Shown here piece by piece: positions 4,679-60,713 of a DNA stretch of 64,000 nt (positions are counted from its first letter, which is position 1; every line of letters starts with the position of its first letter). The position numbers were made by a program, and so were the translations under genes. Location: contig CAWJPR010000018.1 of the NCBI GenBank assembly GCA_963844815.1, positions 462,498 through 526,497 of the forward strand. The letters run 5' to 3'. The DNA is from an uncultured Chloroflexia bacterium. Its GTDB lineage: Bacteria; Chloroflexota; Anaerolineae; Fen-1058. Below the pieces are notes generated by a model, which had not been told where the DNA came from, searched no databases, and saw nothing but the letters and a program-made list of their open reading frames with translations.

Positions 4679-4784
4679 GTGTCATTCTGAACGAGCGAAG
4701 CGAGTGAAGAATCTCTACCACAGCTTGCACTTGATGCCAATCAAGTAAGAGATGCTTCGTCCCTGCGGGACTCAGCATGACACT
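4679..4784. repeat. REP/MITE-like imperfect palindrome, family A (GTCATTCTGAACGAGCGAAGCGAGTGAAGAATCTC ... GAGATGCTTCGTCCCTGCGGGACTCAGCATGAC)
   Basis: inverted arms read directly; intercistronic. Confidence 0.7.
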
Positions 4785-4818
4785 CATGATCTAACTTCGT
4801 CAATGCGAAAGAGGAAGC

Positions 4819-30372: not shown

Positions 30373-30449
30373 GTGTCATTCCGAGCGAAGCGAGGAATCT
30401 CTTCAGGTCACGCAGAGACCCCTCGCCACTCCGCGGCTCGGGGTGACAC
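30373..30449. repeat. REP/MITE-like palindrome, family A (GTGTCATTCCGAGCGAAGCGAGGAATCTC ... GGCTCGGGGTGACAC)
   Basis: intercistronic between the HD and PTE genes. Confidence 0.65.
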
Positions 30450-30471
30450 CGTAAACCAAGTGGAATTTCCG

Positions 30472-32122: not shown

Positions 32123-32250
32123 GTCATTGCACGCAGCATCCTGAGCGCAGCGGAGTCGAAGGATGCGAAGGATGCGACACTTTTTGCGACGAAGCGATCG
32201 CCTACAGTTACGATCGAGATTGCTTCGCAGAAAACGCTCCTCGCAATGAC
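32123..32250. repeat. REP/MITE-like composite palindrome, family A (GTCATTGCACGCAGCATCC... ...GATTGCTTCGCAG..CTCCTCGCAATGAC)
   Basis: intercistronic between the permease and MetE-like genes. Confidence 0.7.
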
Positions 32251-32258
32251 GTGGTCAT

Positions 32259-37972: not shown

Positions 37973-38161
37973 TACGTCATCTTCTTCATGGTAAACTCCT
38001 CCTGAGAGTATTGGGATGCACTACAGCTTGTTGAGCAATCAGTCGAACAACATCCGCTTTTTTCTTCGTGTAGAGCAGCCTCCTTTCTTTCACGACTGAG
38101 AACGTCGATAAGGGCAGTTATGGAGAAAATAGCCTCATACACTACACTCGCAATGACTGTG

Positions 38162-38965
38162 TTACTTCACTGTCCAGCCACCATCTACGGTCAACACCGC
38201 ACCCGTCACAAACTTTGCCTGCTCCGAAGCGAGATACAAGGCCGCTTGTGCCACATCACCCGGCTGTCCGAAATCGCCCGTCAACGGCTGAAGTTCACTC
38301 AAGCGCGCGCGAATCGCCTCGTTCGCCTGGGCGCGTCGGCTCATCGGGGTGGCGATCAACCCCGGACAGATCACATTCGCGCGAATCCGCTGCGGCGCGT
38401 AGTAGGCCGCGATCGAGCGCGTCAGGCTGATGATGCCGCCCTTGCTCGCCGCGTAAGCGTGCGTCGCGAAATCTTCATCGCCGCCCACCAGCCCCAACAC
38501 CGACGACAGGTTGACGATCGCGCCGCCGCCGGCTTTCAGCATTTCACGGATCGCATACTTGCAGCCCAGGAACACGCTCTTCAAATTGATTGCCAGCACG
38601 CGATCCCACGCTTCTTCCGTGCAGTCGGCCGTTGGCCCATCGCCCCACTTGCGGCCGCTCAACCCCGCGCCGTTGAAGATCACGTCGAGCCGGCCAAACT
38701 CTGCAACCGTACGTTTTACAGCGGTTTCAACATCCTGCGCGACGCTCACATCCGTTCGCGCGAAGATCGCGCCGCCGCCGTTCGTTCGAATCTCCTCGAC
38801 CGTCTGCTGCCCGCCCGTTTCATCCAGATCGAAGATCGCGACGCGCGCGCCTGCCTGTGCGAACAGCAGCGCGGTGGCCCGCCCGATGCCGCTGGCCCCG
38901 CCCGTCACGATGGCCACCTTGCGATCCAACACTCGTTCTGCCACAATCACTCTATCCACCGTCAT
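38162..38965 (-). CDS. SDR-family short-chain dehydrogenase/reductase
   Basis: TGGASGIGRA cofactor motif; YAASK catalytic motif. Confidence 0.85.
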   Translation of the reverse strand: MTVDRVIVAERVLDRKVAIVTGGASGIGRATALLFAQAGARVAIFDLDETGGQQTVEEIRTNGGGAIFARTDVSVAQDVETAVKRTVAEFGRLDVIFNGAGLSGRKWGDGPTADCTEEAWDRVLAINLKSVFLGCKYAIREMLKAGGGAIVNLSSVLGLVGGDEDFATHAYAASKGGIISLTRSIAAYYAPQRIRANVICPGLIATPMSRRAQANEAIRARLSELQPLTGDFGQPGDVAQAALYLASEQAKFVTGAVLTVDGGWTVK

Positions 38966-39094
38966 GGCCAGGAGGCCACAGGCCGACGACACATGCGCCT
39001 GCGTTGCGCTTGGCGCAGTGCAGGTGAGCAATCCCGGTGCCAATCAACAAGAGATTGCTTCGCCGCTGCGCGGCTCGCAATGACGTTTCCGCGT

Positions 39095-46291: not shown

Positions 46292-46297
46292 ACCACC

Positions 46298-46383
46298 GTC
46301 ATTGCGAGCCGCGCAGCAGCGAAGCAATCTCCCGCGCAAGTCATGAGATTGCGTCGTCGGCCTGTGGCCTCCTCGCAATGACT
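46298..46383. repeat. REP/MITE-like palindrome, family A (GTCATTGCGAGCCGCGCAGCAGCGAAGCAATCTC ... GAGATTGCGTCGTCGGCCTGTGGCCTCCTCGCAATGAC)
   Basis: intercistronic between the isomerase and glucokinase genes. Confidence 0.75.
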
Positions 46384-46396
46384 CCCACATAACCCC

Positions 46397-47371
46397 ATGA
46401 GCAAAGTCATCGGCGTCGATCTGGGCGGAACCAATCTGCGAGCGGCGGTGATCAACACCGACACCGGCGCGTTCGAGCACCTGACCTCGGTGCCCACCCT
46501 GGCACGCGAAGGCCACGCGGCGGTCATGGACCACATGGCGCGCTTGATCGAGCAGGTCATCGCCGACAGCGGCTTGAGAAAATCCGATATCGGCGGCGTG
46601 GGCATCGGCGTGCCGGGGGTGCTCGATCTGGAGCACGGCCTCACCGTCTTTCTGCCCAACCTCCCCGGCACGTGGCCCAACGTTCCGCTGCGGGACACGA
46701 TCGCCGATCGGGTGCAGCTGCCCGCGTTCCTGATCAACGATGCGCGCGCCATGACGCTGGGTGAATATTCCTTTGGCGCAGGGCGCGGCGTCGATACGAT
46801 CGCGTGTCTGGGCATCGGCACCGGCATCGGCGGCGGACTGGTGATCAATGGCCGCCTGCATCTCAACCTCGGCGGCACCTCGGCAGAATTAGGCCACACC
46901 GTCATCGATATGAACGGCCCGCTGTGCGGCTGCGGCACGCGCGGCTGTCTGGAAGCGTATGCCTCGGGCCCGGCCATCACCGCGCTGGGCCTGAAGGCCG
47001 TGGTGCAAGGCGCCACGACGCGCATTGGCGAGATGGTGGACTACGATCTCAATCGCATCACGCCGCAAGTGATCTTCGAAGCGGCTCGCGCGGGCGATGC
47101 GATTGCGAAAGACATCTATGAGCAGGCCGGGTTCTACATCGGCGTGGCCGTATCCAACATCATCATTGCCGTCGGGCCGCAGCGCGTCGTCATCGGCGGG
47201 GGTGTCTCGCAAGCAGGCGATTTGCTGCTGGATCCGATCCGGCGCACGGTGGCGGAGCGCGTCAACGTCACTTCGATCGAAAAGGTGCAGATCGTGCGCG
47301 CTGAGCTTGGCCCTAACGCGGGACTGATCGGCGCGGGAGTGTGGGTCAGAGATCAAAATCAGGTGGGATAG
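46397..47371 (+). CDS. ROK-family glucokinase
   Basis: [18 protein letters not shown]; Zn motif [15 protein letters not shown]. Confidence 0.85.
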
Positions 47372-47468
47372 TTGTTTTGCAGAGGTAGATCAAGCGATCG
47401 ACTATTAAATAGCCGATCGTTTTGTTTATTCTCGCCTGCTAGCGGAATTTGTGAAAAAAATCCCATTG

Positions 47469-47498
47469 TTGACGAATGATTGACATCTCCCATATAAT
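47469..47498 (+). promoter_or_regulatory. sigma-70-like promoter (-35 TTGACG, 18-nt spacer, -10 TATAAT) in an AT-rich spacer upstream of the hdr locus
   Basis: ttgacg-aatgattgacatctccca-tataat read directly from sequence. Confidence 0.45.
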
Positions 47499-47541
47499 AG
47501 AAATAGCCGCAGGGGGGAAGAAGCAGTCGCGCTAAGGTCTG

Positions 47542-48090
47542 GTGGTGGGGAGCGCGATGGCCATCTTCCGAAATGGGCAGACACGCAGTAAAGCTGAGGT
47601 TGCCGCCACGATCGCTGGCGGCGGCATTAGTTTGGTGTGGCCTGCTTTCGACCCTGCGGACGCCGGGCTCAAGATTTTCCTCGTCGAACATTCCCCCTGC
47701 CCCGGCCAACACGTTACCCAACTCGGATCCATGTTTTTGCCGCGCCGCGGCGCTTCCGGTCACGGACACGGTTGCACGCGGCCGTTCATTTCTCCTGCGC
47801 ACATTCATCACAACCAACATTCCAACGTCGAGGTCCTCACCAACGCGCGCGTGATCGGCGTCGAAGGTCAGGCCGGTGATTTCACCCTAGCGCTGCATCC
47901 GGAACCGCACGATGCAGATGTCGAACGCTGCCTCGTGCACGGATGCACGCCGCCCGGCGAACGGGAAAGGTTCTTGACCAGATCGACAGCGGCGGCGAAC
48001 GGCTGGTTCGCGAAAGACGCGCAGCATAGGCAGCAATTGAGGGAATGCTGCACTTCATTAACAATATTACTCGTCACTCATTACTCGTGA
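47542..48090 (+). pseudogene. decayed partial paralog of the HdrA/HdrL N-terminal region (FAD-binding + first Fe-S motif), cysteine ligands lost
   Basis: AATIAGGGISLVWPAFDPADAGLKIFLVE..GQHVTQLGSMFLP and SNVEVLTNARVIGVEGQAGDFTLAL parallel GAVMVVGGGIAGMQSALDLADQGFKVYLVE..GGHMAQLDKTFPT and PNITLMTDSEVLDVQGQVGDFNVRV of the downstream gene. Confidence 0.5.
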
Positions 48091-48091
48091 C
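48066..48091. repeat. family-B repeat: two tandem ATTACTCGTSAC units immediately upstream of hdrL copy 1
   Basis: attactcgtcactcattactcgtgac. Confidence 0.65.
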
Positions 48092-48106
48092 CCATACTAA
48101 ACCAAT

Positions 48107-51100
48107 ATGACTCAAACCAACGAACCTGCAACGAATAAGCAACCCATCGGGGCCGTCATGGTCGTCGGCGGCGGCATCGCCGGGATGCAGTCCGCGCTCG
48201 ATCTGGCCGATCAGGGCTTCAAGGTGTATCTCGTCGAAGCTCAATCGGCCATCGGTGGACACATGGCGCAGCTCGACAAGACCTTCCCCACCAACGACTG
48301 CGCCATGTGCACCATTTCGCCGCGCCTGGTCGAGACGGGCCGGCATCCCAACATCACCTTGATGACCGACAGCGAAGTCCTCGACGTGCAGGGCCAGGTC
48401 GGCGATTTCAACGTGCGCGTGCGACATCATCCGCGCTACATCGATCTTGAAAAGTGCGTCGGCTGTGGCGATTGCGCCAAGGTCTGCCCCATTCTCATTC
48501 CCGACACGTTCAACGAGGGATTGGCGAAACGCCGCGCGGCCTACAAGTTGTATCCGCAGGCCGTGCCCAACGCTTACGCCATCGCCAAGCGCGGCATTGC
48601 CCCGTGCCGGGATGCCTGCCCCGCCGGCCAACGCGCGCAGGGTTATATCGCGCTGATCCGTGAAGGCCGCTGGAATGACGCGCTGCGCGTGATCAAGATG
48701 GACAATCCGTTCCCCGGCATCTGCGGGCGGATTTGCAATCATCGCTGCGAGACGGCTTGCAATCGCGGACAAGTTGACGAGCCGATCAATATCCGCGCGC
48801 TCAAGCGCTTCGTGACCGATAAAGTCTACGCGGAGCCACGCCAATCGGTGGAGCCGCTGCCCCGGAAGTTCGACCAGCGCGTCGCCATTATCGGCGCAGG
48901 GCCGTGCGGCTTGACGGCGGCGCAGGACCTGGTGCGGGCGGGCTTTGGCGTCACCGTCTTCGAAGCGATGCCGGTGGCGGGCGGCATGCTGCGCCTCGGC
49001 GTGCCGGAATACCGCCTGCCGACGGCCATCATCGAGCGTGAAGTGCAGGACATCGTCGATCTCGGCGTCGATCTGCAACTGAATCATCGCATCGACAATC
49101 TCGACGACATCTTCAGCGCAGGCTTCGATTCGGTGCTGATCGCCGTCGGCGCGCACGAGGGCATTCGCCTGCCCATCCCCGGCGCGAACCTCGACGGCGT
49201 GATCATCAATACGCATTTCTTGAGAGATGTGAGATTGGGCAAGTACACTGGTAACTTGGCAGATAGTAAATTGGCAGATGGTAAATTGGGCAATTCGCCC
49301 ATTACCAATTTACCAATCACCAATCTACCAACCGCCTTAGGCAAAAACGTGCTCGTCCTCGGCGGCGGCAATGTGGCCATCGACTGCGCGCGCAGCGCGG
49401 TGCGCCTGGGCCGCCATGTCGAGATGGCGTGCCTCGAAAGCGGCGACAAGGTTCCGGCGCATGCGTGGGAAGTGCAGGCCGCGCAGGAAGAAGGCATCGT
49501 CCTGCATGAGGGCCGTACCTTTGAGCGAGTTCTGAGCGACGATAACGGGCACGTGCGCGGCGTCGAGTGTATGCGCGTCGCCTCGTTCCATTTCGACGAG
49601 ATGGGACGCTTGAACGTCGAGAAAGTGCCGAACTCAACGCACGTGATCGAATGCGATACCGTGATCTTCTCGGTGGGCCAGCGCGCCGGTCTCGCCTTCA
49701 TTCCCGATGATGCCGGTGTGGGCTTGACGGGCCGCAAGCTGATCGCGGTGAATCCCAACACGCTGGCCGCAACGCGCGAAGGCGTATTCGCTGCGGGCGA
49801 TAGTGTCTCGGGCACGGCGTTTGTGATCGAGGCGGTGAACAGCGGCCACACCGCGGCCCGATCGATCATCCGCTATTTGCAGGGCGAGCATCTCGAGCCG
49901 CCGCATCGACCCGATCTGCCGGTCGTGAAGTCTGACGCGCGATGAGATCAACACGCGCATGGCGCGCGGCGAGATCAGCCGCCAGCCGCGCGTCCCCCTG
50001 CCCGAAGTGCCGGTCGCGCAGCGCATCGACAACTTCATCGAGGTCGAAGGCGGCTACGACGATCAATCAGCGCAGCTGGAAGCCGCTCGCTGCCTGGCCT
50101 GCGGCATCTGCTCGGAGTGCATGAGCTGCACGTTTGCGTGCGGCGTCAACGCGATCGATCACAACATGGTCGCGCGCGACGAAAGCGTGCGCGTGGGAGC
50201 CGTCGTGCTCGCGCCCGGTTATCAAGCCTATCGCGCCGAATTGTCCGAAGAATACGGTCTGGGCCGCTACCCGAACGTCGTCACGTCGCTGCAATTCGAG
50301 CGCCTGCTGTCGGCATCGGGACCAACGTTAGGGCACGTGCAGCGCCCATCGGATGCCAGGGGCGCGCAGAAGATCGCGTTTCTGCAATGCGTGGGCAGCC
50401 GCGACCCAGCGCACGATTACTGCTCGTCGGTGTGCTGCATGTACGCGGCCAAGCAAGCGATCATGGCCGTGGAGCACGCCAAGGCGGAAACGCTTCGCGA
50501 CGACGGCCCGCTGCACTGCCAGGTGTTCTTCATGGACACGCGCGCTTACAGTAAGGGTTACGAAGAATACTATCGGCGGGCGGAGAAGAAATACGGCGTG
50601 CAGTACACGCGCTGCCGCATCAGCGATTTGCGCGAGGACCCCGCCACGCACGATTTGATCCTGCGCTACTTCGACGAACAAGGCCAACTGCAGCGCGAGC
50701 GCTTCGATCTTGTCACGCTGTCGATCGGCATGGAGATTTCGCCCAAGGTGCGCGAGTTGGGGCTGCGGCTGGGCATCGAACTGGATGAGTACGGCTTCTG
50801 CCACACGGTGCAGTTCAATCCGCTCGAGACGAGCCGCGCGGGCATCTATGCCGTCGGGCCGTTCCGCGAGCCGAAGGACATCCCCGAATCGATCGTGGAA
50901 GCGAGCGGCGCGGCAGCCGCCGTTGCGGCGCGCCTTGGCGAGGCGCGCTTCACCTTGACGACGCGCAAAGAGTTTCCACCCGAACGTGATATCACGCAGG
51001 AAGAGCCGCGCGTGGGCGTGTTCGTGTGTCACTGCGGATCGAACATCGGCGGCTTCCTCGATGTGCCCGATGTGTCGGCGTATGCGAAGACCCTGCCGAA

Positions 51101-52871
51101 CGTCGTGCATGCCGAAAACAATCTTTACACCTGCTCGCAAGACAGCATCAAGCACATCATCGAGCGGGTGCAGGAACTCAATCTCAATCGCGTGGTCGTA
51201 GCGTCGTGCACGCCCTTGACGCACGAGCCGTTGTTCCAGGATGCGATTCATCAGGCAGGCCTGAATCCGTATTTGTTCGAGATGGCGAACATCCGCAATC
51301 AATGTTCGTGGGTGCATCCGGGCGATTGGGACGGCGCGACGGCGAAAGCGAAGACGCTGGTGCGCATGGCGGCGGCGCGCGCGGCTGAGCTCGAGCCGCT
51401 GCAGACCTCGCAAGTGCCGATCCAGCACGCGGCGTTGATCATTGGCGGCGGAGCGGCGGGCTTGAACGCCGCGTTGTCGCTGGCCGAGCAAGGTTTCCCG
51501 GTGCATCTGATCGAAAAGAGCGATCAGCCTGGCGGCAATCTGCGCCACCTGCATTTCCTGATTGGCGAGGAGCGCAGCCCGCAGGACTATCTGGCGGAAT
51601 TGGTCGATCGCGCCGCACATCACCCGCTGATCACCATTTACCTGCAAACGGAGTTGATCCAGACCGGCGGCTTCAAGGGCAACTTCACGAGCAAGGTGCG
51701 TGATGCGGCCGGCGCCCTGCAAGAGATACAGCACGGCGTGACCATTGTGGCGACGGGCGGCACGGAATACCGAGGTCGCGAGTATAGCTACGGCAAGCAT
51801 CCGGGCATCATGACCCAGTTGGAGTTTGAGGCGCTGCTAAGTGATATGACATCGTCATTGCGAGGAGCATCCTTGCGCGACGAAGCAATCCCCGATGTGG
51901 CAAAGGAGATTGCTTCGCGAAAAAATGCTCGCAATGACGTGGCTTCGGTGGTCATGATCCAGTGCGTCGGCCCGGGCGAGAAATTCTGCTCGCGCCTGTG
52001 CTGCTCGACGGCGCTCAAGAACGCCTTGCAGGTCAAGCAGCTCAATCCCCAGGCCGAAGTCACGATCCTTTATCGCGACATCCGCACCTACGGCTTCAAA
52101 GAGCGCCTGTACACCGCAGCGCGGCGCGCCGGCGTGCGCTTCATCCGCTTCGACTTCGATCACAAACCAACAGTTGACATCAGCGATCAGCCATCAGCCA
52201 TCAGCCATCAGCAAATCATCGTGCGCGTTCACGAGCCGATTCTGAACCGTGAGGTTGAATTGCGTCCTGATCTGCTCGTCCTCAGCACGCCGATCGTGCC
52301 GCAGAAGGACGCGCACCAGCTGGCCGCGCGCCTCAAAGTGCCGCTCGACGCCGACGGCTTCTTCCTCGAAGCGCATCCGAAATTGCGGCCGGTGGACTTC
52401 GCCTCCGACGGGCTGTTCATGGCGGGCGTGGCGCACTATCCCAAGTTCCTCGACGAGACGATCGCGCAGGCGCAGGCGGCCGCGGCGCGCGCGGCGATCA
52501 TTCTCTCGCAAGAGAGCGTGCTGACCAATGCGCGCGTGGCCGTGGTCGATAACACGAAGTGTGTGGGCTGTCTCACCTGTGTGCGCGCGTGCCCGTATGA
52601 CGTGCCGAAAGTCAAGATGAGCTTCACGGGCGTGGGCAATATCACCGGCGCGGCCTACATCGAAGCCGCCATGTGCCAGGGCTGCGGCACCTGCGCCGCC
52701 GAGTGCCCGGCCCAGGCGATCCAGTTGATGCACTATCGGGATGCGGAGATGCTGCCCAAGATCGACGCCTTGTTCGGGTTGCAGCCGGGAGTAGTCAGTA
52801 GTCAGATTTCAGAAGACAGTACGCAGTCGGGCACATACTGGCTAATGCCCAAGGAGAGCGAGCGTGCATAA
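48107..52871 (+). CDS. giant HdrA-family flavoprotein, copy 1: HdrA N-half + inserted GltD-like NAD(P)H oxidoreductase module (HdrL-like) + HdrA C-half, fused in-frame to a second complete HdrA; one apparent frameshift near 49930
   Basis: VMVVGGGIAGMQSALDLADQGF, TNDCAMC and CVGCGDCAKVCP (HdrA N-half). CRDACPAGQRAQGY...GICGRICNHRCETAC...IIGAGPCGLTAA (GltD-like). Then, in the ORF 49959 frame, ARCLACGICSECMSCTFAC...FLQCVGSRD...YCSSVCCMYAA (HdrA C-half). This is followed by VGVFVCHCGSNIGG, ANIRNQCSWVH, IIGGGAAGLNAAL, IQCVGPGEKFCSRLCCS and a C-terminal 2x[4Fe-4S] domain (complete second HdrA). Confidence 0.8.
51854..51938. repeat. family-A REP/MITE-like palindrome inserted IN-FRAME inside hdrA copy 1 (GTCATTGCGAGGAGCATCCTTGCGCGACGAAGCAATC ... 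GAGATTGCTTCGCGAAAAAATGCTCGCAATGAC)
   Basis: Encodes ...MTSSLRGASLRDEAIPDVAKEIASRKNARNDVAS... between conserved QLEFEALLSD and VVMIQCVGPGEKF. Confidence 0.75.
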
Positions 52872-53256
52872 GTTCAGGGAATTAAAAGTCTGGCAGCGAT
52901 CGATGGATTTGATAGTCGAAGTTTATCAGCTCACCCAGACTTTTCCGCAGGCGGAACAACTTGGACTGATCAGCCAGTGCGACGGGCAGCCGTCTCAATT
53001 TCGTTGAACATTGCTGAGGGTGCGGGCAGCGGCACCGATCCTGAATTTCGGTGCTTCTGGCGCATGGCGCTGCGTTCCTGTTACGAAGTGATGACCGGCC
53101 TGGAAATTGGCCACCGTTTGGGCTACTGCGACGATCGACGTGTGAATACCTTGATTCCAGAAGCGGACGAGATCGCTGCCATGATCGTTGGTCTTAGCCG
53201 CGGCCTATCCGAGAAGTAATCTGACTACTGACTTCTGACTACTGACTACTGGAGAC
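52795..53256. mobile_element. small cassette carrying the four-helix-bundle gene, flanked by inverted simple repeats (GTAGTCAGTAGTCAG / CTGACTACTGACTTCTGACTACTGACTACTGG), inserted at the 3' end of hdrA copy 1
   Basis: Inverted (CTGACTA)n-type arms at 52795-52809 and 53223-53255. The hdrA copy-1 ORF is extended by about 25 codons encoded by the left arm, relative to copy 2. Confidence 0.5.
52864..53219 (+). CDS. four-helix-bundle protein (TIGR02436-like, '23S rRNA intervening-sequence protein' family); apparent frameshift near 52975
   Basis: VHKFRELKVWQRSMDLIVEVYQLTQTFPQAEQLGLISQ, then in the next frame RRAAVSISLNIAEGAGSGTDPEFRCFWRMALRSCYEVMTGLEI...; GTG start overlaps the hdrA stop. Confidence 0.65.
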
Positions 53257-53260
53257 ACCT

Positions 53261-53719
53261 TTGAGCAACAATGGATTCGAACCGAACATCATAGCGTTCT
53301 GCTGTCACTACTGCGCGTACGCCGCCGCCGATCTGGCCGGGTCGATGCGCCTCGAATACCCGACGGCGGTGAAGATCGTCGAGCTGCCCTGCACCGGCAA
53401 ACTCGACGTGCTCTACGTCTTGCGCGCGTTCGAGGACGGCGCCGACGGCGTGCTGGTGGCGGGTTGACTGGAAGGCGAATGTCATTACCTGGAAGGTAAT
53501 CTCAACGCCCGCCGGCGAATTGAATACGCGCAGAAACTGTTGGAGCAGATCGGATTGCAGGGCCGCCGCGTCCAGATGATCAACCTGTCGTCGGCGATGG
53601 GCGGCCAGTTCGCGTTCTCGATCGCGGAATTGACCGCGGAGATCAAGCAGCTGGGGCCGAACCCATTGGGCATTAAAGACCTGGCAGGTTCTTCTGCGCC
53701 TGAAGGCGAAACTCGATAG
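53261..53719 (+). CDS. mvhD: MvhD-like protein (methyl-viologen-reducing hydrogenase delta subunit family; HdrA electron-transfer partner) with in-frame TGA (putative selenocysteine) at the conserved Cys of the AG[C/U]..G.CHY motif
   Basis: FCCHYCAYAAADLAG...VELPCTGKLDVLYVLRAFEDGADGVLVAG-TGA(53465-53467)-LEGECHYLEGNLNARRR...; the frame is conserved through the TGA. Confidence 0.75.
53474..53509 (+). promoter_or_regulatory. putative bacterial SECIS hairpin downstream of the mvhD UGA (copy 1)
   Basis: ggcg-aatgtc-attacc-tggaa-ggtaat-ctcaa-cgcc; the core gtcattacctggaaggtaatctcaacgc is nucleotide-identical in the paralogous copy. Confidence 0.5.
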
Positions 53720-53793
53720 ACTAACGTGTGATGTTGGCAAGCAAGACCAGACAGAGAGTGAAAACCTGCCAGGTCTACCCACAGAGGTAAAAG

Positions 53794-54189
53794 ATGGACA
53801 AGCAGCCGTACATCATCATCACCGACGACGATCCCGACATCATTGAGAACCTGGTTACCATTCTCGGCACCCGGCCCTATCGGCTGGGGACGGCGCGCGA
53901 TGGCAAGCAGTGCCTGGCGCTGATCAGACAGGAGCAGCCCGATCTGCTGATCCTCGACATGCTGATGCCGCGCATGGACGGCTGGGGCGTGATCCGCGAA
54001 CTGCGCAGCGATCCGTTGTATGCCGATTTGCCGATCATGGTGTTGACCACCGTCGTCGAAGACGCCAGCCGCCGCCGCTACGAACTGGAAGTCGGCATGG
54101 AGATGGACGTGCAGGACTACCTGCAGAAACCGGCCAAGCCCGCCGAGCTGCTGCAGCGTGTCGAGAAACTGCTGAAGGTCCATGCTTAA
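53794..54189 (+). CDS. response regulator, receiver domain only (CheY-like)
   Basis: IIITDDDPDI...LILDMLMPRMDGW...KP signature residues. Confidence 0.8.
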   Translation: MDKQPYIIITDDDPDIIENLVTILGTRPYRLGTARDGKQCLALIRQEQPDLLILDMLMPRMDGWGVIRELRSDPLYADLPIMVLTTVVEDASRRRYELEVGMEMDVQDYLQKPAKPAELLQRVEKLLKVHA

Positions 54190-55384
54190 CCCAGCGATCA
54201 CGTCCATCTCAATCCGAGTTGACCGCCTGCGCCGATCGGAAATCTTCAGCGAGCTGGCCGAGGCCGACCTGTTGGCTATCGCCGAGCTCTGCGCCGAGGA
54301 ACGCTACGACGAGGGTGAGGCGGTGCTGTCTGAAGGCGCGCCCGCCGCCGCGGTGTTCGTCGTCGAGCGCGGCAAACTCGCCCTGGAGAAGAAGATCCAG
54401 ATCGGGCGGCACTCGACGCCGCGCAATGCGACCATCGACTACGTCGAGCCGGGCAAGACGGCGGGATTCTCGGGGTTGGTGGCGCCGTTTGTCTATTCCA
54501 CATCCGCCGTCTGCCTGGAGCCGACGCGCGTCCTGCGCGTCGACGGCCCGGCGCTGCGCGCCTACCTCGCAGCGCATCCGGCCGCGGGCGTGAAAGTGTT
54601 CACGGCGGTAGCCGAATTGATCAGCGATCGCTATCGCCACTCGATCGATACCTTGACTTACTTTTTGTCGGTCGTGTCGCACGAACTCCGCTCGCCGCTG
54701 GCCGCGGTCGAGAATTATCTGCAGACGCTGCTGGGCGGCTACGCCGGCGAGCTCACCGACAAGCAGCAGCACATGATGACGCGCTGCGTGCTGCGGGTGA
54801 CCGATCTGCGCGGGCTGATCGGCGACGTGGTCGATCTGGCGCGCATGCGGCCCGAGCAGATTCAGGCCGACTTCGAATGGTTCGATCCCGGCGAGGTGGG
54901 CACCGAGTCGATCGAGGATGCGCGGTTGGCGGCCGCCGAAAAAGGGATTCACCTCAAGATCGAAGCGCCGCCGAAGTTCGAACCGATCGTCGGCGCGCGG
55001 CGGCGCATGCGCCAGGTGTTTACGAACCTGCTGAACAACGCGGTCAAGTATGCGCCGCCCGACAGCATCGTGACGATTCGCGCGTGGTACGCGCCGGACA
55101 CGCTGTATTTTGAAGTCGAGGACGAAGGTCCCGGGATTCCGGCCGAAGATGTGCCGCACGTTTTCGAGGAATTCTTTCGCTCCGAAAGCACGAGTGATAC
55201 GCCGGGCGTCGGTCTCGGCCTGTCAATCGCCCAGAAGATCGTCGCTGCGCACCACGGCGAAATCACTGTAAAGAGCGTGCATGGTTTTGGGGCCACAGGC
55301 ACCCGTTTCACCGTCACCATCCCGCGCAACTTGCAGACGCCGGAGATGCGGCGGCGCGAATGGATGATGACAGGCAATGAGTGA
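54182..55384 (+). CDS. sensor histidine kinase with an N-terminal cyclic-nucleotide-binding (cNMP/CAP-like) domain
   Basis: cNMP-like SEIFSELAEADLLAIAELCAEERYDEGEAVLSEG; H-box VSHELRSPL; N-box and G-boxes (NLLNNAVKYA, GVGLGLSI). Confidence 0.8.
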   Translation: MLNPAITSISIRVDRLRRSEIFSELAEADLLAIAELCAEERYDEGEAVLSEGAPAAAVFVVERGKLALEKKIQIGRHSTPRNATIDYVEPGKTAGFSGLVAPFVYSTSAVCLEPTRVLRVDGPALRAYLAAHPAAGVKVFTAVAELISDRYRHSIDTLTYFLSVVSHELRSPLAAVENYLQTLLGGYAGELTDKQQHMMTRCVLRVTDLRGLIGDVVDLARMRPEQIQADFEWFDPGEVGTESIEDARLAAAEKGIHLKIEAPPKFEPIVGARRRMRQVFTNLLNNAVKYAPPDSIVTIRAWYAPDTLYFEVEDEGPGIPAEDVPHVFEEFFRSESTSDTPGVGLGLSIAQKIVAAHHGEITVKSVHGFGATGTRFTVTIPRNLQTPEMRRREWMMTGNE

Positions 55385-55435
55385 CGAGTGATAAGTAACG
55401 AGTAATGGATTACGTATTACGCACTACTCGTTATC
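55377..55435. repeat. family-B repeat: AATGAGTGACGAGTGATAAGTAACGAGTAATGG ... CACTACTCGTTATC upstream of hdrL copy 2; supplies the histidine-kinase stop codon
   Basis: read directly. Confidence 0.65.
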
Positions 55436-55497
55436 ATAGATGAATCGACATGACTTAAGCCAGTGACACGCAATCAAATAAGCAGCCTATCGGCGCC

Positions 55498-58400
55498 GTG
55501 ATGGTCGTCGGCGGCGGCATCGCGGGGATGCAGGCCGCGCTCGATCTGGCCGATCAGGGCTTCAAGGTCTACCTCGTCGAGGAGAAATCGGCGATCGGCG
55601 GCCACATGGCGCAGCTCGATAAGACGTTCCCGACCAACGACTGCGCGATGTGCAACATCAGCCCGAAGTTGGTGGACGTGGGCCGCCATCTCAACATCGA
55701 GATTCTCACCGACACGGACGTGCTCGGCGTCACCGGACAGGCCGGCAATTTCACGGTGTCCGTGCGCCGCCGGCCGCGCTACGTCGACGTGGCGAAGTGT
55801 ATCGGCTGCGGCGACTGCGCGCAGGTGTGTCCGGTGTCGCTGCCCAACTTGTACGAAGAGCAGCTGAAGGATCGCAAGGCCGCGTATCGCTTGTACACGC
55901 AGGCCGTGCCCTCGGCCTATGCGATCGACAAACGCGGCGTCGCGCCGTGTCGCGATGCCTGTCCAGCGGGTCAGCGCGCGCAGGGTTACATCGCGTTGAT
56001 CGCGCAGGGGCGCTACCGCGAAGCGTTCCGCGTCATCAAAGAGGACAATCCGTTCCCCAGCGTCTGCGGGCGCACGTGCCACCATCCGTGCGAAGGGCAC
56101 TGCACGCGCGCCATGGTCGACGAAGCGGTCGGCATCATGTCGCTCAAGCGCTTCGTGATCGATCACGCCCTCGCCTACGGGCGCGAGAAGGTCGAGCCCG
56201 CGGCGCGCACGCGGCCCGCATGGATCGCCGTCGTCGGCGCGGGCCCGGCCGGCCTTACCGCCGCGCACGATCTGGCGAAGCTGGGCTACGGCGTCACCGT
56301 GTACGAAGCGCTGCCGGTAGCGGGCGGCATGATGCGCGTCGGCATCCCGGCGCACCGCCTGCCCAAAGGCGTGCTGCAGCAGGACATCGACGACATCCTG
56401 GCGTTGGGCGTCGTCCTCAAGACCAACTCTCCGGTCAAAGACCCGGCCGAGCTGCTCAAGCGTGGCTACAACGCGGTGTGCCTGGCGACGGGCATCTCGT
56501 CGCGCGATCAAGCGATCGGGATTGAAGGTGAAAACGCCGCGGGCGTCATCCCCGCTGCGACGTTCCTGCGCAAGGTCAATCTGGGCGAGCCGGTCACGAT
56601 CGGGGATCGCGTGGCCGTGATCGGCGGGGGCATCACGGCGCTGGATGCGGCCGCCGTCGCGCGCCGCCTGGGCGCCGAGGTTTACCTGGTGCTCGATCGG
56701 CCTCGCGGCGAGATTCCGGCCTACGAAGTGGAGATGAACGCGGTTGAAGCAGAGGGCATTCATCTCTTCGAGCGCACGACCGCGACGCGCATCCTGGCGC
56801 AGAATGGCAAAGTCACCGGCGTCGAGCTGGCGCAGACCGAAGGCGGCCTGACGACCGACGAGCGCGGCCGCCGCCGTCCGATGATCAAACCCGGCTCTGA
56901 ATTCACGTGCGAGGTCGATACCGTGATCGGCACGGTCGGCCAGTTCTCCGATCTGTCGTTCCTCGATCAGCGCTACGACGATCTCACGGTCGATAAGCAC
57001 ACGCTGGCGAGCGACATCCCCGGCCTGTTCGTGGTGGGCGGCCGCAAGACCGGCGCGAGCTATATCATCGAGGCGGTGGCGCTGGGGCATCGCGTCGCCG
57101 CGTCGATCGATCGTTACTTGCAGGGCCAGCCGCTGAAACACGCTGCGCCGCCCGCCCCGCCGGTCGTGAAATTCGCGCGCGAAGAGCTGGCGCAGAAAGT
57201 GACTGCGCGGCGAGATTCGTTTGCAGCCGCGCACGCAGCCGGCCCTGCTGCCGATGGAAGAGCGCGTGACCAGCTTCCGCGAAGTGGTGCTGGGGCTCAC
57301 CGAGCGGCAGGCGCGCGCCGAAGCGCAGCGCTGCCTGCAATGCGGCCTGTGCTCCGAATGCCTGGCGTGTGTCTATGCCTGCGGCGTCGACGCGATTGAT
57401 CACAACGCGGTCGCGCGCGAGGAGCAGATCGATGTCGGCGCCGTCATTCTCGCGCCGGGTTATCAGGCTTACCAGGCCGCCCTGTCACGCGAATACGGCT
57501 TCGGCCGTTATCCGAACGTGATCACGGCGCTGCAATTCGAGCGCTTGCTGTCGGCGTCCGGCCCGACCCTGGGGCATGTGCGCCGGCCGTCGGATCAACG
57601 TGAACCGCAGCGCGTCGCGTTCCTGCAGTGTGTCGGCTCGCGCGATCAGGCGCACGATTACTGCTCGGCGGTGTGCTGCATGTACGCGACGAAGGAAGCG
57701 GTCATCGCCAAAGAACACCAACCCGATCTGGACGTGCACGTCTTCATGATGGACATGCGCGCCTTCAGCAAAGGCTATTGGTCCTACTTCGAGCGCGCGC
57801 GCGATCAATACGGCGTGCACTACCATCGCTGCCGCGTCAGCGAACTGCACGAAGACCCAGCGACGCATAATCTGCTCATTCGATATCAGGGCGATCAGCA
57901 ATCTCGCGGGGATAGTGGGCACTCGGCACTCAGCATTCAGCATTCAGCAATCAGCACTCAAGAATTCGATCTCGTCGTGTTATCCGTCGGAATGGAAATC
58001 TCAGAGTCTGTTCGCGCGTTAGGCAAGCGCCTGGGCGTCGAACTCGACGAGTACGGCTTCTGCCACACGGTGCAATTCAACCCGATCGAAACGAGTCGTC
58101 CGGGCATCTATGCGGTCGGCCCGTTCCGCGAGCCGAAGGACATTCCCGAATCCGTCGTGGAGGCGAGCGGTGCAGCGGCGGCGAGCGCGGGCCTGCTGGC
58201 CGGCGCCCGCTGGTCCCTGACGCGCACCCGTGAGTACGCGGCCGAACGCGACGTCGCACATGAAGAACCGCGGATCGGCGTGTTCGTGTGCCACTGCGGA
58301 TCGAACATCGCCGGTTACCTCGACGTGCCTGCCGTGACCGAGTATGCGCGCGCGCTGCCGCACGTCGTCCACGCCGAAGACAAGCTGTATGCCTGCTCGC

Positions 58401-60180
58401 AGGATTCGATCAAGTTGATTACCGAGCGCGTGCAGGAACATCACCTCAACCGCGTGGTCGTCGCCAGCCTGCACGCCGCTGACGCATCAGCCCTTGTTCC
58501 AGGACAGCATCCGCAACGCCGGGTTGAATCCGTACCTGTTCGAGATGGCGAACATCCGCAATCAATGCTCGTGGGTGCACTCGCACGAACCGGATGTCGC
58601 CACCGAGAAAGCGCAGGACCTCGTGCGCATGTCCGTCGCGCGCGCGGCGCTGCTTCAACCTCAACACACGTTCACGGTGCCGGTCAAGCACGCGGCGCTG
58701 ATCGTCGGCGGCGGCGTGGCGGGCATGACGGCGGCACTCTCGTTAGCCGAGCAGGGCTTTCCCGTTCACTTGGTCGAGAAGGAAGCGGAGCTCGGCGGCA
58801 ATCTGCGGCAGGCGTTCCTGCCGTCCAACGGCAAAGAGCCGCAAATCATCCTGACGCAACTGGTTGATCAAGTTCAACACAACTCGCTCATCACCGTTCA
58901 TCTCGAAAGCCGGGTCGTGTCGACCGGCGGCTTTATGGGCAACTTCGAAAGCAAGATGCGTGATGCAAGAGGCATACTGCAGGAAGTGCAGCACGGCGTG
59001 ACAATTTTAGCCACCGGCGCCCAGGAATATCGCGGATCGGACTACGGTTTCGGCACGCACCCGAGGATTATCACGCAACAACAGTTTGAGAGAATGCTGA
59101 CCAAAGGGTGTCATTCCCCCCAGCGCGCCCCCGCTGAGAAGCAGCGGACAGGGCGTGAGGCGCGTAGCGCCGAAGAATCTCTACCGCCGACGAACAGCGC
59201 TACCGATCAGAGCCGAGATTCTTCGCTCCCCGCAAAGCGGGTCGCTCAGAATGACACGGCCAGAAATGAGCCGCTCGCCATTCCGAATTCCGAATTCCGA
59301 GTTCAGAATTCCGTCGTCATGATCCAGTGCGTCGGCCCGGCTGAGAAGTTCTGCAGCCGTATCTGCTGCGCCGAGGCGCTAAAGAATGCCATTGCACTGA
59401 AAGCGCAGCAGCCCGAGGCACAGGTTGTCATTCTCTACAAGGATATCCGCACCTATGGCTTCAAAGAGCGGCTCTATACAACTGCCCGCCAGCATGGCGT
59501 CATCTTCATGCGCTATGATGATAATCATCGGCCAGAGGTAGTAGTCAGCAATCAGCAGTCAGCAATCAGCAGTTCAGGCCTGGGATTCCATTCTGCAACG
59601 TTCCATCATCCTGCAACCCAATCTACTCGTCCTGTCAATGCCCGTGGTGCCACGCGACGACGCGCACGAGGTCGCCAAGTTGTTCAAGGTCTCGCTCGAC
59701 GCCGACGGTTTCTTCCTCGAAGCACACGTGAAATTGCGGCCGGTTGATTTCGCATCCGACGGCGTGTTCATGGCGGGCATGGCGCATTATCCCAAGCTGT
59801 TGGACGAGACGATGATTCAGGCGCAGGCGGCTGCCTCGCGCGCGGCGAGAGTGCTGAGCCACGAATCGCTCACGGCAGGCGGGCGCGTCGCCGTGGTGGA
59901 CGATGCGAAGTGCACCGGCTGCCTGACGTGCGTGCGCATCTGCCCCTTCGGCGTGCCGAAGATCAAAGCGAACTTGACCGGCGTGGGCCACATCGTCGGC
60001 GCGGCCTATATCGAAGCAGCCGTGTGCCAGGGCTGCGGCTCGTGCGTGGCCGAATGTCCTGCGCAGGCGATCCAGTTGATGCATTACACTGATGCGCAGA
60101 TGGTCGCAAAGATTCAGGCGCTGATGCGGCCGTCGGGCGGGTTTGTACCAGTCGATGAGATAGCGGCGAGTGGAAACTAA
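55498..60180 (+). CDS. giant HdrA/HdrL-like + HdrA fusion, copy 2 (same architecture as copy 1); three apparent frameshifts (about 57217, 58466, 59575) and a TAA at codon 3 of the ancestral start
   Basis: ORFs 55498-57399, 57221-58867, 58494-59747 and 59638-60180 align co-linearly with copy 1. Upstream in-frame ATG ACT TAA (55450-55458) corresponds to the ATG ACT CAA start of copy 1. Confidence 0.7.
59109..59256. repeat. family-A REP/MITE-like palindrome inserted IN-FRAME inside hdrA copy 2 at the homologous position (GTGTCATTCC...GAAGAATCTC ... GAGATTCTTCG...CAGAATGACAC)
   Basis: Encodes ...GCHSPQRAPAEKQRTGREARSAEESLPPTNSATDQSRDSSLPAKRVAQNDTARNE... followed by the tandem repeat cattccgaattccgaattccgagttcagaattccg (59278-59312). 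Confidence 0.75.
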
Positions 60181-60251: not shown

Positions 60252-60713
60252 ATGGATACAGCATCAAGTGCAGTTCAAACAAAACTGAATATCATCGCCT
60301 ACTGCTGTGAGCACTGCGCTTACGCCGCGGCCGATCTGGCGGGTGGATTGCGGATGCAATACCCGCCCGCGATCAAGATCGTGCAGATACCCTGCACGGG
60401 CCGCATGGATGTGCTGACCGTGTTGCGGGCCATCGAGGACGGCGCGGACGGCATCATGGTGGCGGGTTGACTGCCCGGCGACTGTCATTACCTGGAAGGT
60501 AATCTCAACGCAAAACGCCGGGTGGCCCATGTGCAGGATGTGCTGAAGAACATCGGGCTGGAGCCCGAGCGCGTGCAGATGTTCAACCTGTCCTCGGCAA
60601 TGGCGGGACGATTTGCCGAGGCGACGAAAGAGATGACGGAAAAGATTGAGGAGTTGGGCCCAAATCCATTGAGAGAAGAGATGACAAAGCGATCCACGAA
60701 TGAACACGAATGA
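60252..60713 (+). CDS. mvhD: MvhD-like protein, copy 2, with in-frame TGA (putative selenocysteine) at the same position
   Basis: YCCEHCAYAAADLAG...VQIPCTGRMDVLTVLRAIEDGADGIMVAG-TGA(60468-60470)-LPGDCHYLEGNLNAKRR... Confidence 0.75.
60475..60521 (+). promoter_or_regulatory. putative bacterial SECIS hairpin downstream of the mvhD UGA (copy 2)
   Basis: ccggcg-actgtc-attacc-tggaa-ggtaat-ctcaacgcaaaa-cgccgg. Confidence 0.5.

Follow-up and report, generated by a model that had tools for sequence, protein, structure and literature searches.

In a 64,000-nucleotide stretch of DNA from an uncultured Chloroflexia bacterium (contig CAWJPR010000018.1 of assembly GCA_963844815.1, positions 462,498 to 526,497; hereafter the window, numbered from its first letter; GC content 60%), two genes for large paralogous polyferredoxins resembling HdrA lie about 7.3 kb apart on the plus strand. 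The first, copy 1, occupies positions 48107-52871 and the second, copy 2, approximately 55450-60180; their products are 61% identical. Each gene carries, in frame, a palindromic repeat element of the repetitive extragenic palindromic (REP) type between the conserved segments TQLEFE..L and VVMIQCVGP, within the linker leading from the helix ..TQLEFE..L to the strand VVMIQCVGP in the second HdrA module. The element of copy 1 (51853-51939, plus strand) is assigned here to family A and that of copy 2 (59108-59257, plus strand) to family B.

The copy-1 element, delimited by motif searches, folding and orthologous copies in the relatives L002, L123, L124 and L126, measures 85 nt from GTCATT to AATGAC, exactly as the original prediction had it, and 87 nt with its CGTC tags. 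It is a nested palindrome, CGTCATTGCGAG..CGAAGCAATCCC..GGAGATTGCTTCG..CTCGCAATGACG, laid out as CGTCATTGCGAG-(16 nt)-CGAAGCAATC-(17 nt)-GATTGCTTCG-(10 nt)-CTCGCAATGACG, and constitutes a head-to-head dimer of CGTC-tagged REP-like units. The outer arms are located at 51853-51864 and 51928-51939 and the inner arms at 51881-51892 and 51905-51917, with a central loop of 17 nt. Situated between TQLEFEALL and VVMIQCVGPGEKF, the element reads ..LLSDMTSSLRGASLRDEAIPDVAKEIASRKNARNDVASVVMIQ.. within a 970-residue open reading frame (ORF; 49959-52871), with the predicted peptide ..SSLRGASLRDEAIPDVAKEIASRKNARND.., and its fold (-40.8 kcal/mol) lies well below those of shuffled controls (z -5.76).

The copy-2 element, a TGTC-tagged variant recognized by its tag, its fold and its orthologous copies in L001 and L127, is longer, as had been predicted; it spans 150 nt in all and 146 nt, rather than the proposed 148, from GTCATTC to GAATGAC. 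Its sequence is GTGTCATTC..CGAAGAATCTC..GAGATTCTTCG..TCAGAATGACAC, with outer arms GTGTCATTC / GAATGACAC at 59108-59116 and 59249-59257 and inner arms CGAAGAATCTC / GAGATTCTTCG at 59171-59181 and 59215-59225. About 39 nt of additional, nested, hairpin-forming sequence at approximately 59117-59155 are present in the window and absent from the L001 and L127 orthologs. The fold is again significant against shuffled controls (-65.5 kcal/mol, z -4.26). Downstream of the element, Tandem Repeats Finder detected the tandem run noted earlier as ATTCCG, which is a heptamer, ATTCCGA, in 4.9 copies (59280-59313, plus strand); element and run are open together in the local frame of ORF 58494-59747. Over the whole window, arm motifs were matched 10 times against 2.2 expected, a count that none of 100 shuffles reached, and a second arm-motif search gave 7 matches against 0.96 expected.

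How far these elements depart from the ordinary state of the protein can be judged from its relatives. In 117 orthologs, the segment between ..FE..L and VVMIQC comprises 9-12 residues in 80 cases, most often 12, and at least 20 residues in 30, with a maximum of 57; with a range of 9-57 residues, the site tolerates length change. Relative to the usual 12 residues, the net gain is approximately 24 residues in copy 1 and 59 in copy 2, which revises the earlier figure of 35-65. The elements begin five codons (copy 1) and three codons (copy 2) after the conserved ..LL/..ML, and the proposal that both paralogs were hit at the same codon position consequently holds for the linker, whereas identity of the nucleotide is not demonstrable.

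Syntenic contigs of relatives allowed the fill state of both copies to be read. Both are filled in the window; copy 1 is filled and copy 2 empty in L002 and L126, and copy 1 is empty and copy 2 filled in L001. In L127, a filled copy 2 accompanies a copy 1 that is free of the element and contains inverted heptamer arrays instead. Three genomes possess a single copy, corresponding to copy 1, which is filled in L123 and L124 and empty in L125. Filled/empty, empty/filled and filled/filled combinations are thus all represented, and empty/empty was not found among the relatives examined. The survey for element-free alleles that the original prediction had called for therefore succeeded for each paralog (copy 1 in L001, L125 and L127; copy 2 in L002 and L126). 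At the DNA level, the empty linker consists of 7-nt tandem arrays in all four empty alleles read as DNA, namely CCAACCT x4 in copy 1 of L001, AATCAGA x4 in copy 2 of L002, a CAATCAG-type array in L125 and TCATCAG-type repeats in copy 2 of L126. The ATTCCGA run has homologous arrays in L001 and L127 (ATTCCGC) and in the empty L002 allele (AATCAGA x4), and it is what remains of the heptamer-coded default linker; the copy-2 element lies upstream of this surviving array. Further kinds of insert occupy the same linker elsewhere: inverted heptamer arrays, seen as DNA in L127 and in P0015 and P0018 from protein sequences only, and, in proteins of the P0004 type, a different, unclassified sequence of about 29 residues.

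These comparisons bear on the suggestion that a long linker is ancestral and merely resembles a palindrome, with no insertion having taken place. Long linkers in which no REP signature is obvious do occur in some distant orthologs (for example, P0024, P0054, P0083 and P0117), but the nearest relatives have 12-residue linkers, and each arm of the elements has its match in intergenic repeats of the window and of other phyla; we regard an ancestral long linker as exceedingly improbable. What the elements have entered, or replaced, is a default linker of about 12 residues, and with element-free close relatives and a commonest length of 12 residues among the 117 orthologs, the originally proposed insertion stands.

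The two paralogs acquired different family members independently, after the duplication. Orthologs are 85-93% identical, compared with 61% between copy 1 and copy 2; the paralogs are therefore much older than these genomes, and as empty alleles exist of each, the gains must have been separate and must postdate the duplication. Within each paralog lineage, by contrast, all filled alleles go back to one event followed by internal insertions and deletions. The five filled copy-1 alleles have identical junctions (..ATGACr-n-CGTCATTGCGAG.. and ..CTCGCAATGACG-TGGCYTCG-GTS..) and common spacer motifs (GAGCATCYTTG.. and ..rGATG), which indicates a single origin, and their elements measure 87, 87, 123, 150 and 87 nt, all multiples of three; the three filled copy-2 alleles likewise have common junctions and side hairpins. 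Independent site-specific insertion in each copy-1 lineage was considered and rejected on account of these shared junctions and spacer motifs. Of the two histories initially offered, an insertion that preceded the duplication can thus be abandoned, and what remains is a permissive or hot linker struck independently by different members of the repeat family.

Whether the elements lie in functional genes requires attention, since neither gene is intact as assembled. Copy 1 is split into 612 and 970 residues by one extra base at approximately 49931, its single +1 frame break according to the junction sequences, and copy 2 contains three +1 breaks, at approximately 57202, 58469 and 59568-59571, located by tblastn frames and junction sequences. 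The orthologs, in comparison, are single ORFs of 1530-1590 residues. Three of the four breaks consist of a single extra base and are plausibly consensus errors of the assembly; the remaining one falls within a heptamer repeat, AGTCAGCAATCAGC. A break in a heptamer run is also what a natural slippage frameshift would give.

One could therefore argue that the genes, copy 2 in particular, are dead or dying in this strain and that the elements are untranslated pseudogene junk, a view to which the four breaks lend support, as does the filled copy 2 of L001, which is broken as well, by a premature stop codon. Yet once the breaks are removed, both window genes are free of stop codons over about 1550 codons, and copy 2 of the window shows a ratio of nonsynonymous to synonymous substitution rates (dN/dS) of 0.11-0.13 with each relative, no different from pairs of intact genes. 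In both paralogs every pair gives a ratio of 0.07-0.13, and the hdrA-like genes are under strong purifying selection (dN/dS about 0.1). The genes neighbouring the pair encode 304, 324, 131 and 400 residues, exactly the lengths found in L002. Moreover, copy 2 of L127 is intact at 1619 residues with its element in place, and four intact copy-1 genes retain theirs. The lack of stops, the dN/dS values typical of intact relatives and the intact neighbouring genes together mean that the breaks are either assembly errors or very recent inactivation, and decay of the genes is, in our judgement, improbable. The idea that a filled copy 2 goes along with pseudogenization, prompted by the broken copies of the window and L001, was rejected, given the filled and intact copy 2 of L127 and the dN/dS of about 0.1.

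The reading frames are consistent with translation of the elements. Intact full-length ORFs containing the family-A element encode 1574, 1553, 1588 and 1563 residues, and the one with the family-B element, that of L127, 1619. In all eight filled alleles the frame is kept, no stop codon occurs within the element, and insertions and deletions inside the elements are multiples of three. We infer from these frames that the inserts would be translated as part of the host protein. The stop-free read-through claimed at the outset accordingly holds locally, and it fails for the whole genes as assembled because of the one break in copy 1 and the three in copy 2. As for the position in the protein, the proposed alignment to an HdrA crystal structure could be made: with HdrA of Methanothermococcus (5ODC_A) as the reference for the second HdrA module, the linker maps to the loop at residues ~360-378, just before the strand IAFIQCVGSRD and its Fe-S-binding cysteines. 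An AlphaFold model built with 41 homologs gives the insert a predicted local distance difference test (pLDDT) score of 45-50, with two short helices, against 78-87 for the flanks, which, taken with the length range of 9-57 residues, is consistent with a tolerant and probably exposed excursion.

To place the elements among known repeats, the most relevant comparison is with the CGTC-tagged REPs (Di Nocera, De Gregorio & Rocco 2013, BMC Genomics 14:522; PMC3733652). Each unit has at one terminus an unpaired tetranucleotide tag (CGTC, with TGTC and CCTC as variants), followed in the published families by a stem of 8-9 bp, the first two pairs of which are A-T, a loop of 4-5 nt, and a short unpaired 3' tail with the consensus CCA. 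They occur mainly as head-to-head dimers with the tags outside and a variable spacer, which can fold into one long hairpin; most are intergenic, and intragenic copies encoding 20-30 or more residues are found in several species (PMC3733652). The same survey found no associated transposase, reported the class in five phyla, Chloroflexi not among them, with particular strength in Alphaproteobacteria such as Bradyrhizobium and sphingomonads, observed copy numbers varying 50-fold between species, and classed RPE-6 of R. conorii as CGTC-1 and RPE-4 as CGTC-4 (PMC3733652).

Most of these features recur in our elements. Family A has CGTC at 51853-51856 and its reverse complement at 51936-51939, and family B has TGTC at 59109-59112 and its reverse complement at 59253-59256; the stems open with A-T and T-A pairs (ATTGC../..GCAAT and ATTC../..GAAT), and the tails are short and C-rich. 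The tail is ..GCAATCCA(G), that is, CCA, in most of the cross-phylum copies listed, and ..GCAATCCC, ..GCAATCTC or ..GAATCTC, that is, CCC or CTC, in the window. Head-to-head dimers account for five of the seven window copies and for 82 copies in other genomes (70-119 nt). The distribution is also similar, mostly intergenic with some copies in ORFs, and strong in Alphaproteobacteria such as Bradyrhizobium. Differences concern the stem, which has only 5 bp, and the 'loop' of at least 12 nt with a GCGAAGC-type mini-hairpin; a single unit does not fold significantly (-2.7 kcal/mol, z ~0). In addition, the encoded peptides SLRGA.., ..ARND, CHSE.. and ..AQND do not figure in the published lists for CGTC-1 to CGTC-4, and the canonical CGTC-1 unit, GTCATTCCCGCGAAAGCGGGAAT, was not found in the window. 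Since tag, A-T start, tail and dimer arrangement agree and stem and loop size and peptides do not, the elements represent at most a further family with the hallmarks of the superfamily and belong to none of the four published CGTC families. Rfam 15, applied to the whole window at gathering thresholds, gave no match, and at 51800-52000 with permissive E-values returned only sub-threshold chance matches to microRNAs and CRISPR repeats; a full-text literature search for the arm sequences and the typical encoded peptides yielded nothing relevant.

Family A extends far beyond this host. A scan of one genome per species for its architecture matched at least 120 loci, and the matches listed include Bradyrhizobium and other Alphaproteobacteria (Rickettsiales among them), Bacteroidota, Chloroflexota, Patescibacteria, Zixibacteria, Ignavibacteriota, Planctomycetes, Spirochaetes, Desulfobacteraceae and Syntrophomonadaceae. 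The 82 full copies among the matches listed measure 70-119 nt, with nearly invariant arms of 11-12 nt and variable loops and spacers, and 53% of the reading frames through them are open. The architecture is also present in 102 viral or proviral contigs of IMG/VR (L128-L207 and further loci), some of which (L190, L193 and L200) contain three tandem or dispersed copies; viral contigs are a possible route for the spread of family A across phyla. One locus outside Chloroflexota, L072 (3453-3522 of a Bacteroidales metagenome-assembled genome contig, WQWA01000003.1, 41% GC), has a family-A dimer in frame, ..RHCEALSAEAIQKEVDCFATLAMT.., in an ORF of 410 codons with a Walker-A motif and no Pfam match, and its sequence probably reflects a genuine coding insertion in another phylum. 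At GC-rich loci from Bradyrhizobium and proteobacteria (L099, L085, L010 and L109), long ORFs spanning family copies were dismissed by their composition as spurious antisense frames, which leaves L072 as the only apparently real in-frame case.

The original prediction had likened the elements to the Rickettsia palindromic elements (RPEs), and the likeness proved closer than claimed, given the hallmarks of CGTC/TGTC-tagged dimers and the inclusion of R. conorii RPE-4 and RPE-6 in that class. According to the accounts consulted, RPEs are palindromic repeats found in frame in unrelated housekeeping genes (Ogata et al. 2000, Science 290:347; PMC10969869, PMC3733652) and give rise to extra peptide segments, thought to lie at structurally tolerant positions (Ogata et al. 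2002, Genome Res 12:808; PMC10969869, PMC3733652). In both systems, one palindrome family occurs intergenically and in frame in conserved protein genes, with element-free orthologs. Unlike RPEs, our elements belong to a different sequence family and reside in a free-living, GC-rich Anaerolineae-type host rather than in a reduced intracellular genome; here, filled and empty alleles exist among both orthologs and paralogs, and the site is shared with heptamer tandem repeats. The view that in-frame tolerance of such palindromes is unusual was overstated, the phenomenon having been described and intragenic dimers documented (PMC3733652). The RAYT-mobilized REPINs also consist of two inverted REP units with a short spacer and form a hairpin of ~80-150 nt that acts as a single entity (Bertels & Rainey 2011, PLoS Genet 7:e1002132; PMC3116915). 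Despite this common two-unit hairpin architecture, REPINs are GTAG-tagged, lineage-specific and associated with a cognate RAYT, whereas the present elements are CGTC/TGTC-tagged, have no known RAYT link and, among the matches listed, have nearly identical arms across many phyla.

Why the same linker should have been struck in both paralogs is a separate question. The coincidence is most simply put down mainly to a selection filter, both insertions having survived in the same permissive loop, the one loop of this module that is unconstrained in its length and sequence; biased mutation in DNA so rich in repeats may also contribute. Alternatively, the linker may be a true mutational hot spot, to which the elements are targeted by slippage-prone heptamer arrays or by the sequence (C/T)GTCATGATCCA, with selection not the main reason. 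This sequence encodes VVMIQ directly downstream and, like a REP unit, has what resembles a tag, a stem start and a tail, and the conserved downstream codons read CGTCATGATCCA or TGTCATGATCCA in all alleles. Targeting would also suit the arrival of two different family members within two codons of the linker start in paralogs that are only 61% identical, the heptamer repeats of the four empty linkers read as DNA together with the inverted-array and P0004-type inserts, and the finding that, among 120 orthologs, the REP signature appears at this linker only and not in three other variable linkers. On the other hand, only two events need explaining, as the element has a single origin within each paralog lineage, and the elements do not abut GTCATGATCCA, their upstream distance from it being 8 nt in copy 1 and ~60 nt in copy 2; nor are the intergenic window copies consistently next to heptamer arrays, and no target-site signature is visible. 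We therefore consider a true hot spot doubtful.

Taken together, it is highly probable that each of the two hdrA-like paralogs independently gained a REP-like head-to-head dimer, which is tolerated in a flexible linker in the manner of the RPEs. In such a scenario, the elements would arrive by the spreading mechanism of the CGTC class, for which no dedicated transposase is known, and would survive because the loop, as modelled, protrudes at the surface and accommodates altered lengths and sequences, and because roughly every second reading frame through the elements is open. Translation would then add 24-59 flexible, hydrophilic residues that hardly affect the enzyme, an outcome equivalent to the Rickettsia RPE scenario.

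Several observations weigh against this explanation. The copy-1 element replaces the whole heptamer array and is not a simple interruption of it. Its distribution is patchy, each filled copy-1 allele having a nearest neighbour without the element; the filled and element-free members of such pairs are 91-94% identical in amino acid sequence (P0003/P0005, 94%; P0001, the window's own protein, and P0004, 92%; P0009/P0011, 91%; P0012/P0010, 91%), and the immediate flanks of the filled L123 are nearest to those of the empty L001. After a single origin, heptamer arrays or other inserts must therefore have taken the place of the element several times, or alleles must have been exchanged between lineages. 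No insertion mechanism, target-site duplication or transposase was identified, neither the window's ORFs nor those of the fetched loci having been scanned for Y1 or HUH transposases. Both genes are +1-broken in this assembly, and if the breaks are real, this strain makes no intact proteins. Translation is supported indirectly, by reading frames and by selection on the host genes, and surface exposure is inferred only, from an AlphaFold model of mediocre quality (mean pLDDT 64.6). Finally, the arms of the elements are conserved far above neutral DNA, which a purely passive passenger does not predict.

This last point deserves closer consideration. In the five copy-1 orthologs, identity over the 44 arm positions amounts to 98.2% (8 mismatches in 440 pair-positions), compared with ~80% identity in the flanking coding DNA and differences of 40-58% (~45%) at synonymous sites; a conservative test gives P ~1e-14. 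The central loop meanwhile keeps its length (17-19 nt) as its sequence drifts. The arms are thus either under sequence-specific constraint or continually homogenized against other copies, and this raises the possibility that the elements are not mere passengers, their arms being kept by sequence-specific selection or continual gene conversion. Under constraint, they would have a role at the DNA or RNA level, such as a binding site or hairpin for a conserved host factor, a site of mRNA processing or stability, or an interdomain translational pause, and the hdrA linker would be one place where such a role is tolerated or used. In keeping with this possibility, the intergenic family-A dimer at 46296-46383 is retained at the orthologous site of L002 (4262-4350) with 92% identity, despite a synonymous-site difference of ~40%, with its spacer hairpin stems kept and its loops changed; the same 11-12-nt arms recur at the loci matched across many phyla; and other orthologs carry different hairpin-forming inserts at this linker (L127, P0015 and P0018, as above).

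No host function of the element can be essential at the linker, however, because many close relatives lack it and the default direct-repeat linker is unable to fold. Conversion among genomic copies, or palindrome repair by template switching, could conserve the arms even if the host gained nothing; a trans-acting factor is not known, and the 50-fold spread in copy number argues against one general function (PMC3733652). With so many relatives managing without the element, constraint on the arms stays a minority reading, possible if somewhat unlikely. We would add, tentatively, that the arms may be recognized by a conserved trans-acting factor, either an enzyme that mobilizes the CGTC class or a protein of the host that binds DNA or RNA, a rather unlikely idea with which near-identical arms at orthologous coding and intergenic loci and across phyla are in keeping. 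If such a factor exists, the hdrA linker, filled and empty in two paralogs, would offer a natural test bed for its role.

Apart from the two in-frame copies, the repeat family occurs at five sites in the window, all of them intergenic, which bears out the earlier count of five or more. They comprise a family-B (TGTC-tagged) dimer at 4682-4793 and a TGTC-tagged relative, GTGTCATTCCGAGCG..GGGGTGACAC, at 30373-30450, both found by motif search and fold; a partial (half) family-A element with its right unit intact at 32190-32252, found by motif searches; a family-A dimer with a degenerate left arm at 38960-39086, between two minus-strand genes; and the dimer at 46296-46383 already mentioned, between a gene of the AP-endonuclease-2 family and a ROK gene. 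A lone arm was detected by motif search at 38147-38157. On the minus strand at 38940-38965, an arm of the 38960-39086 element supplies an ATG (..CCATGACG..), most plausibly the start codon of the downstream short-chain dehydrogenase (MTVDRVIVAERVLDRKVAIVTGG..).

Heptamer arrays are not confined to the element-bearing linker. The three further variable linkers of the HdrA-like protein contain 7/8-nt arrays that differ between paralogs and among orthologs, and repeat DNA makes up most of the variable linkers in this family. In the window, all on the plus strand and in frame where a reading is given, they include inverted 7/8-nt repeat arrays (..NLADSKLADGKLGNSPITNLPITNLP.., 49251-49336) in a linker of copy 1 that are lacking in copy 2, a run of CATCAGC x5 (..SAISHQQ.., 52178-52212) in a third variable linker of copy 1 with its counterpart in copy 2 at 59543-59573, and a 42-nt run of GCACTCA x6 (..HSALSIQHSAIS.., 57919-57960) in a linker of copy 2. 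The full-text literature on heptanucleotide repeats in Chloroflexi was uninformative. In cyanobacteria, short tandemly repeated repetitive (STRR) sequences reportedly form 7-nt tandem arrays scattered through the genome, some as inverted pairs; judged by this description, the relationship is one of resemblance only, and the phylum differs. The arrays described here lie in frame in variable linkers.

The surroundings of the two genes show further variation. In L002 (5525-9900), the ROK gene is followed by an extra HdrA-like gene (~1030-1056 residues) and a full-length FlpD gene, and in relatives the same pair directly precedes copy 1; the corresponding interval of the window (47371-48107) is only ~730 nt long and lacks the pair. 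On the 3' side of copy 1, a flpD/MvhD gene (53261-53722, plus strand) has an in-frame TGA at 53465-53467, at a conserved cysteine of MvhD, in the context ..GADGVLVAG-TGA-LEGECHYLEGN.., and conserved sequence resumes past it. The gene is likewise split into ORFs of ~68 and ~58 residues in all relatives, a paralogous stretch lies at 60283-60582, and the TGA is probably a selenocysteine codon in a Chloroflexi-type MvhD. Between copy 1 and flpD, a truncated gene (52977-53219, plus strand) encodes a '23S rRNA intervening-sequence protein' (PF05635, a four-helix bundle, E 2e-19) and is bracketed by inverted heptamer arrays, AGTAGTC / CTGACTA, at 52790-52819 and 53221-53250. In relatives, this spot holds a PDDEXK_3 gene (L123 and the contig of P0004), an unannotated 162-residue ORF (L124) or nothing, as though small selfish genes had a second landing site here.

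REP dimers of the CGTC type inside genes, and behaviour like that of the RPEs, have been described before; what is new here is the host phylum, the host gene, the further stem family and the coupling with heptamer-coded linkers, as well as a well-controlled comparison of paralogs and orthologs and the pattern of arm conservation. The findings add Chloroflexota to the phyla of the CGTC-tagged class and a further family to its stems, and they raise the points of how repeats without a transposase spread and why their arms are near-invariant amid drift. For annotation, the motifs ..SLRGA..ARND.. and ..CHSE..AQND.. in proteins denote repeat-derived peptides, and the variable linkers of the HdrA-like family are filled with repeat DNA. 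More broadly, the sequences suggest that REP-type palindromes can persist for long periods as translated sequence in an essential-looking Fe-S flavoprotein of a free-living bacterium, beyond Rickettsia.

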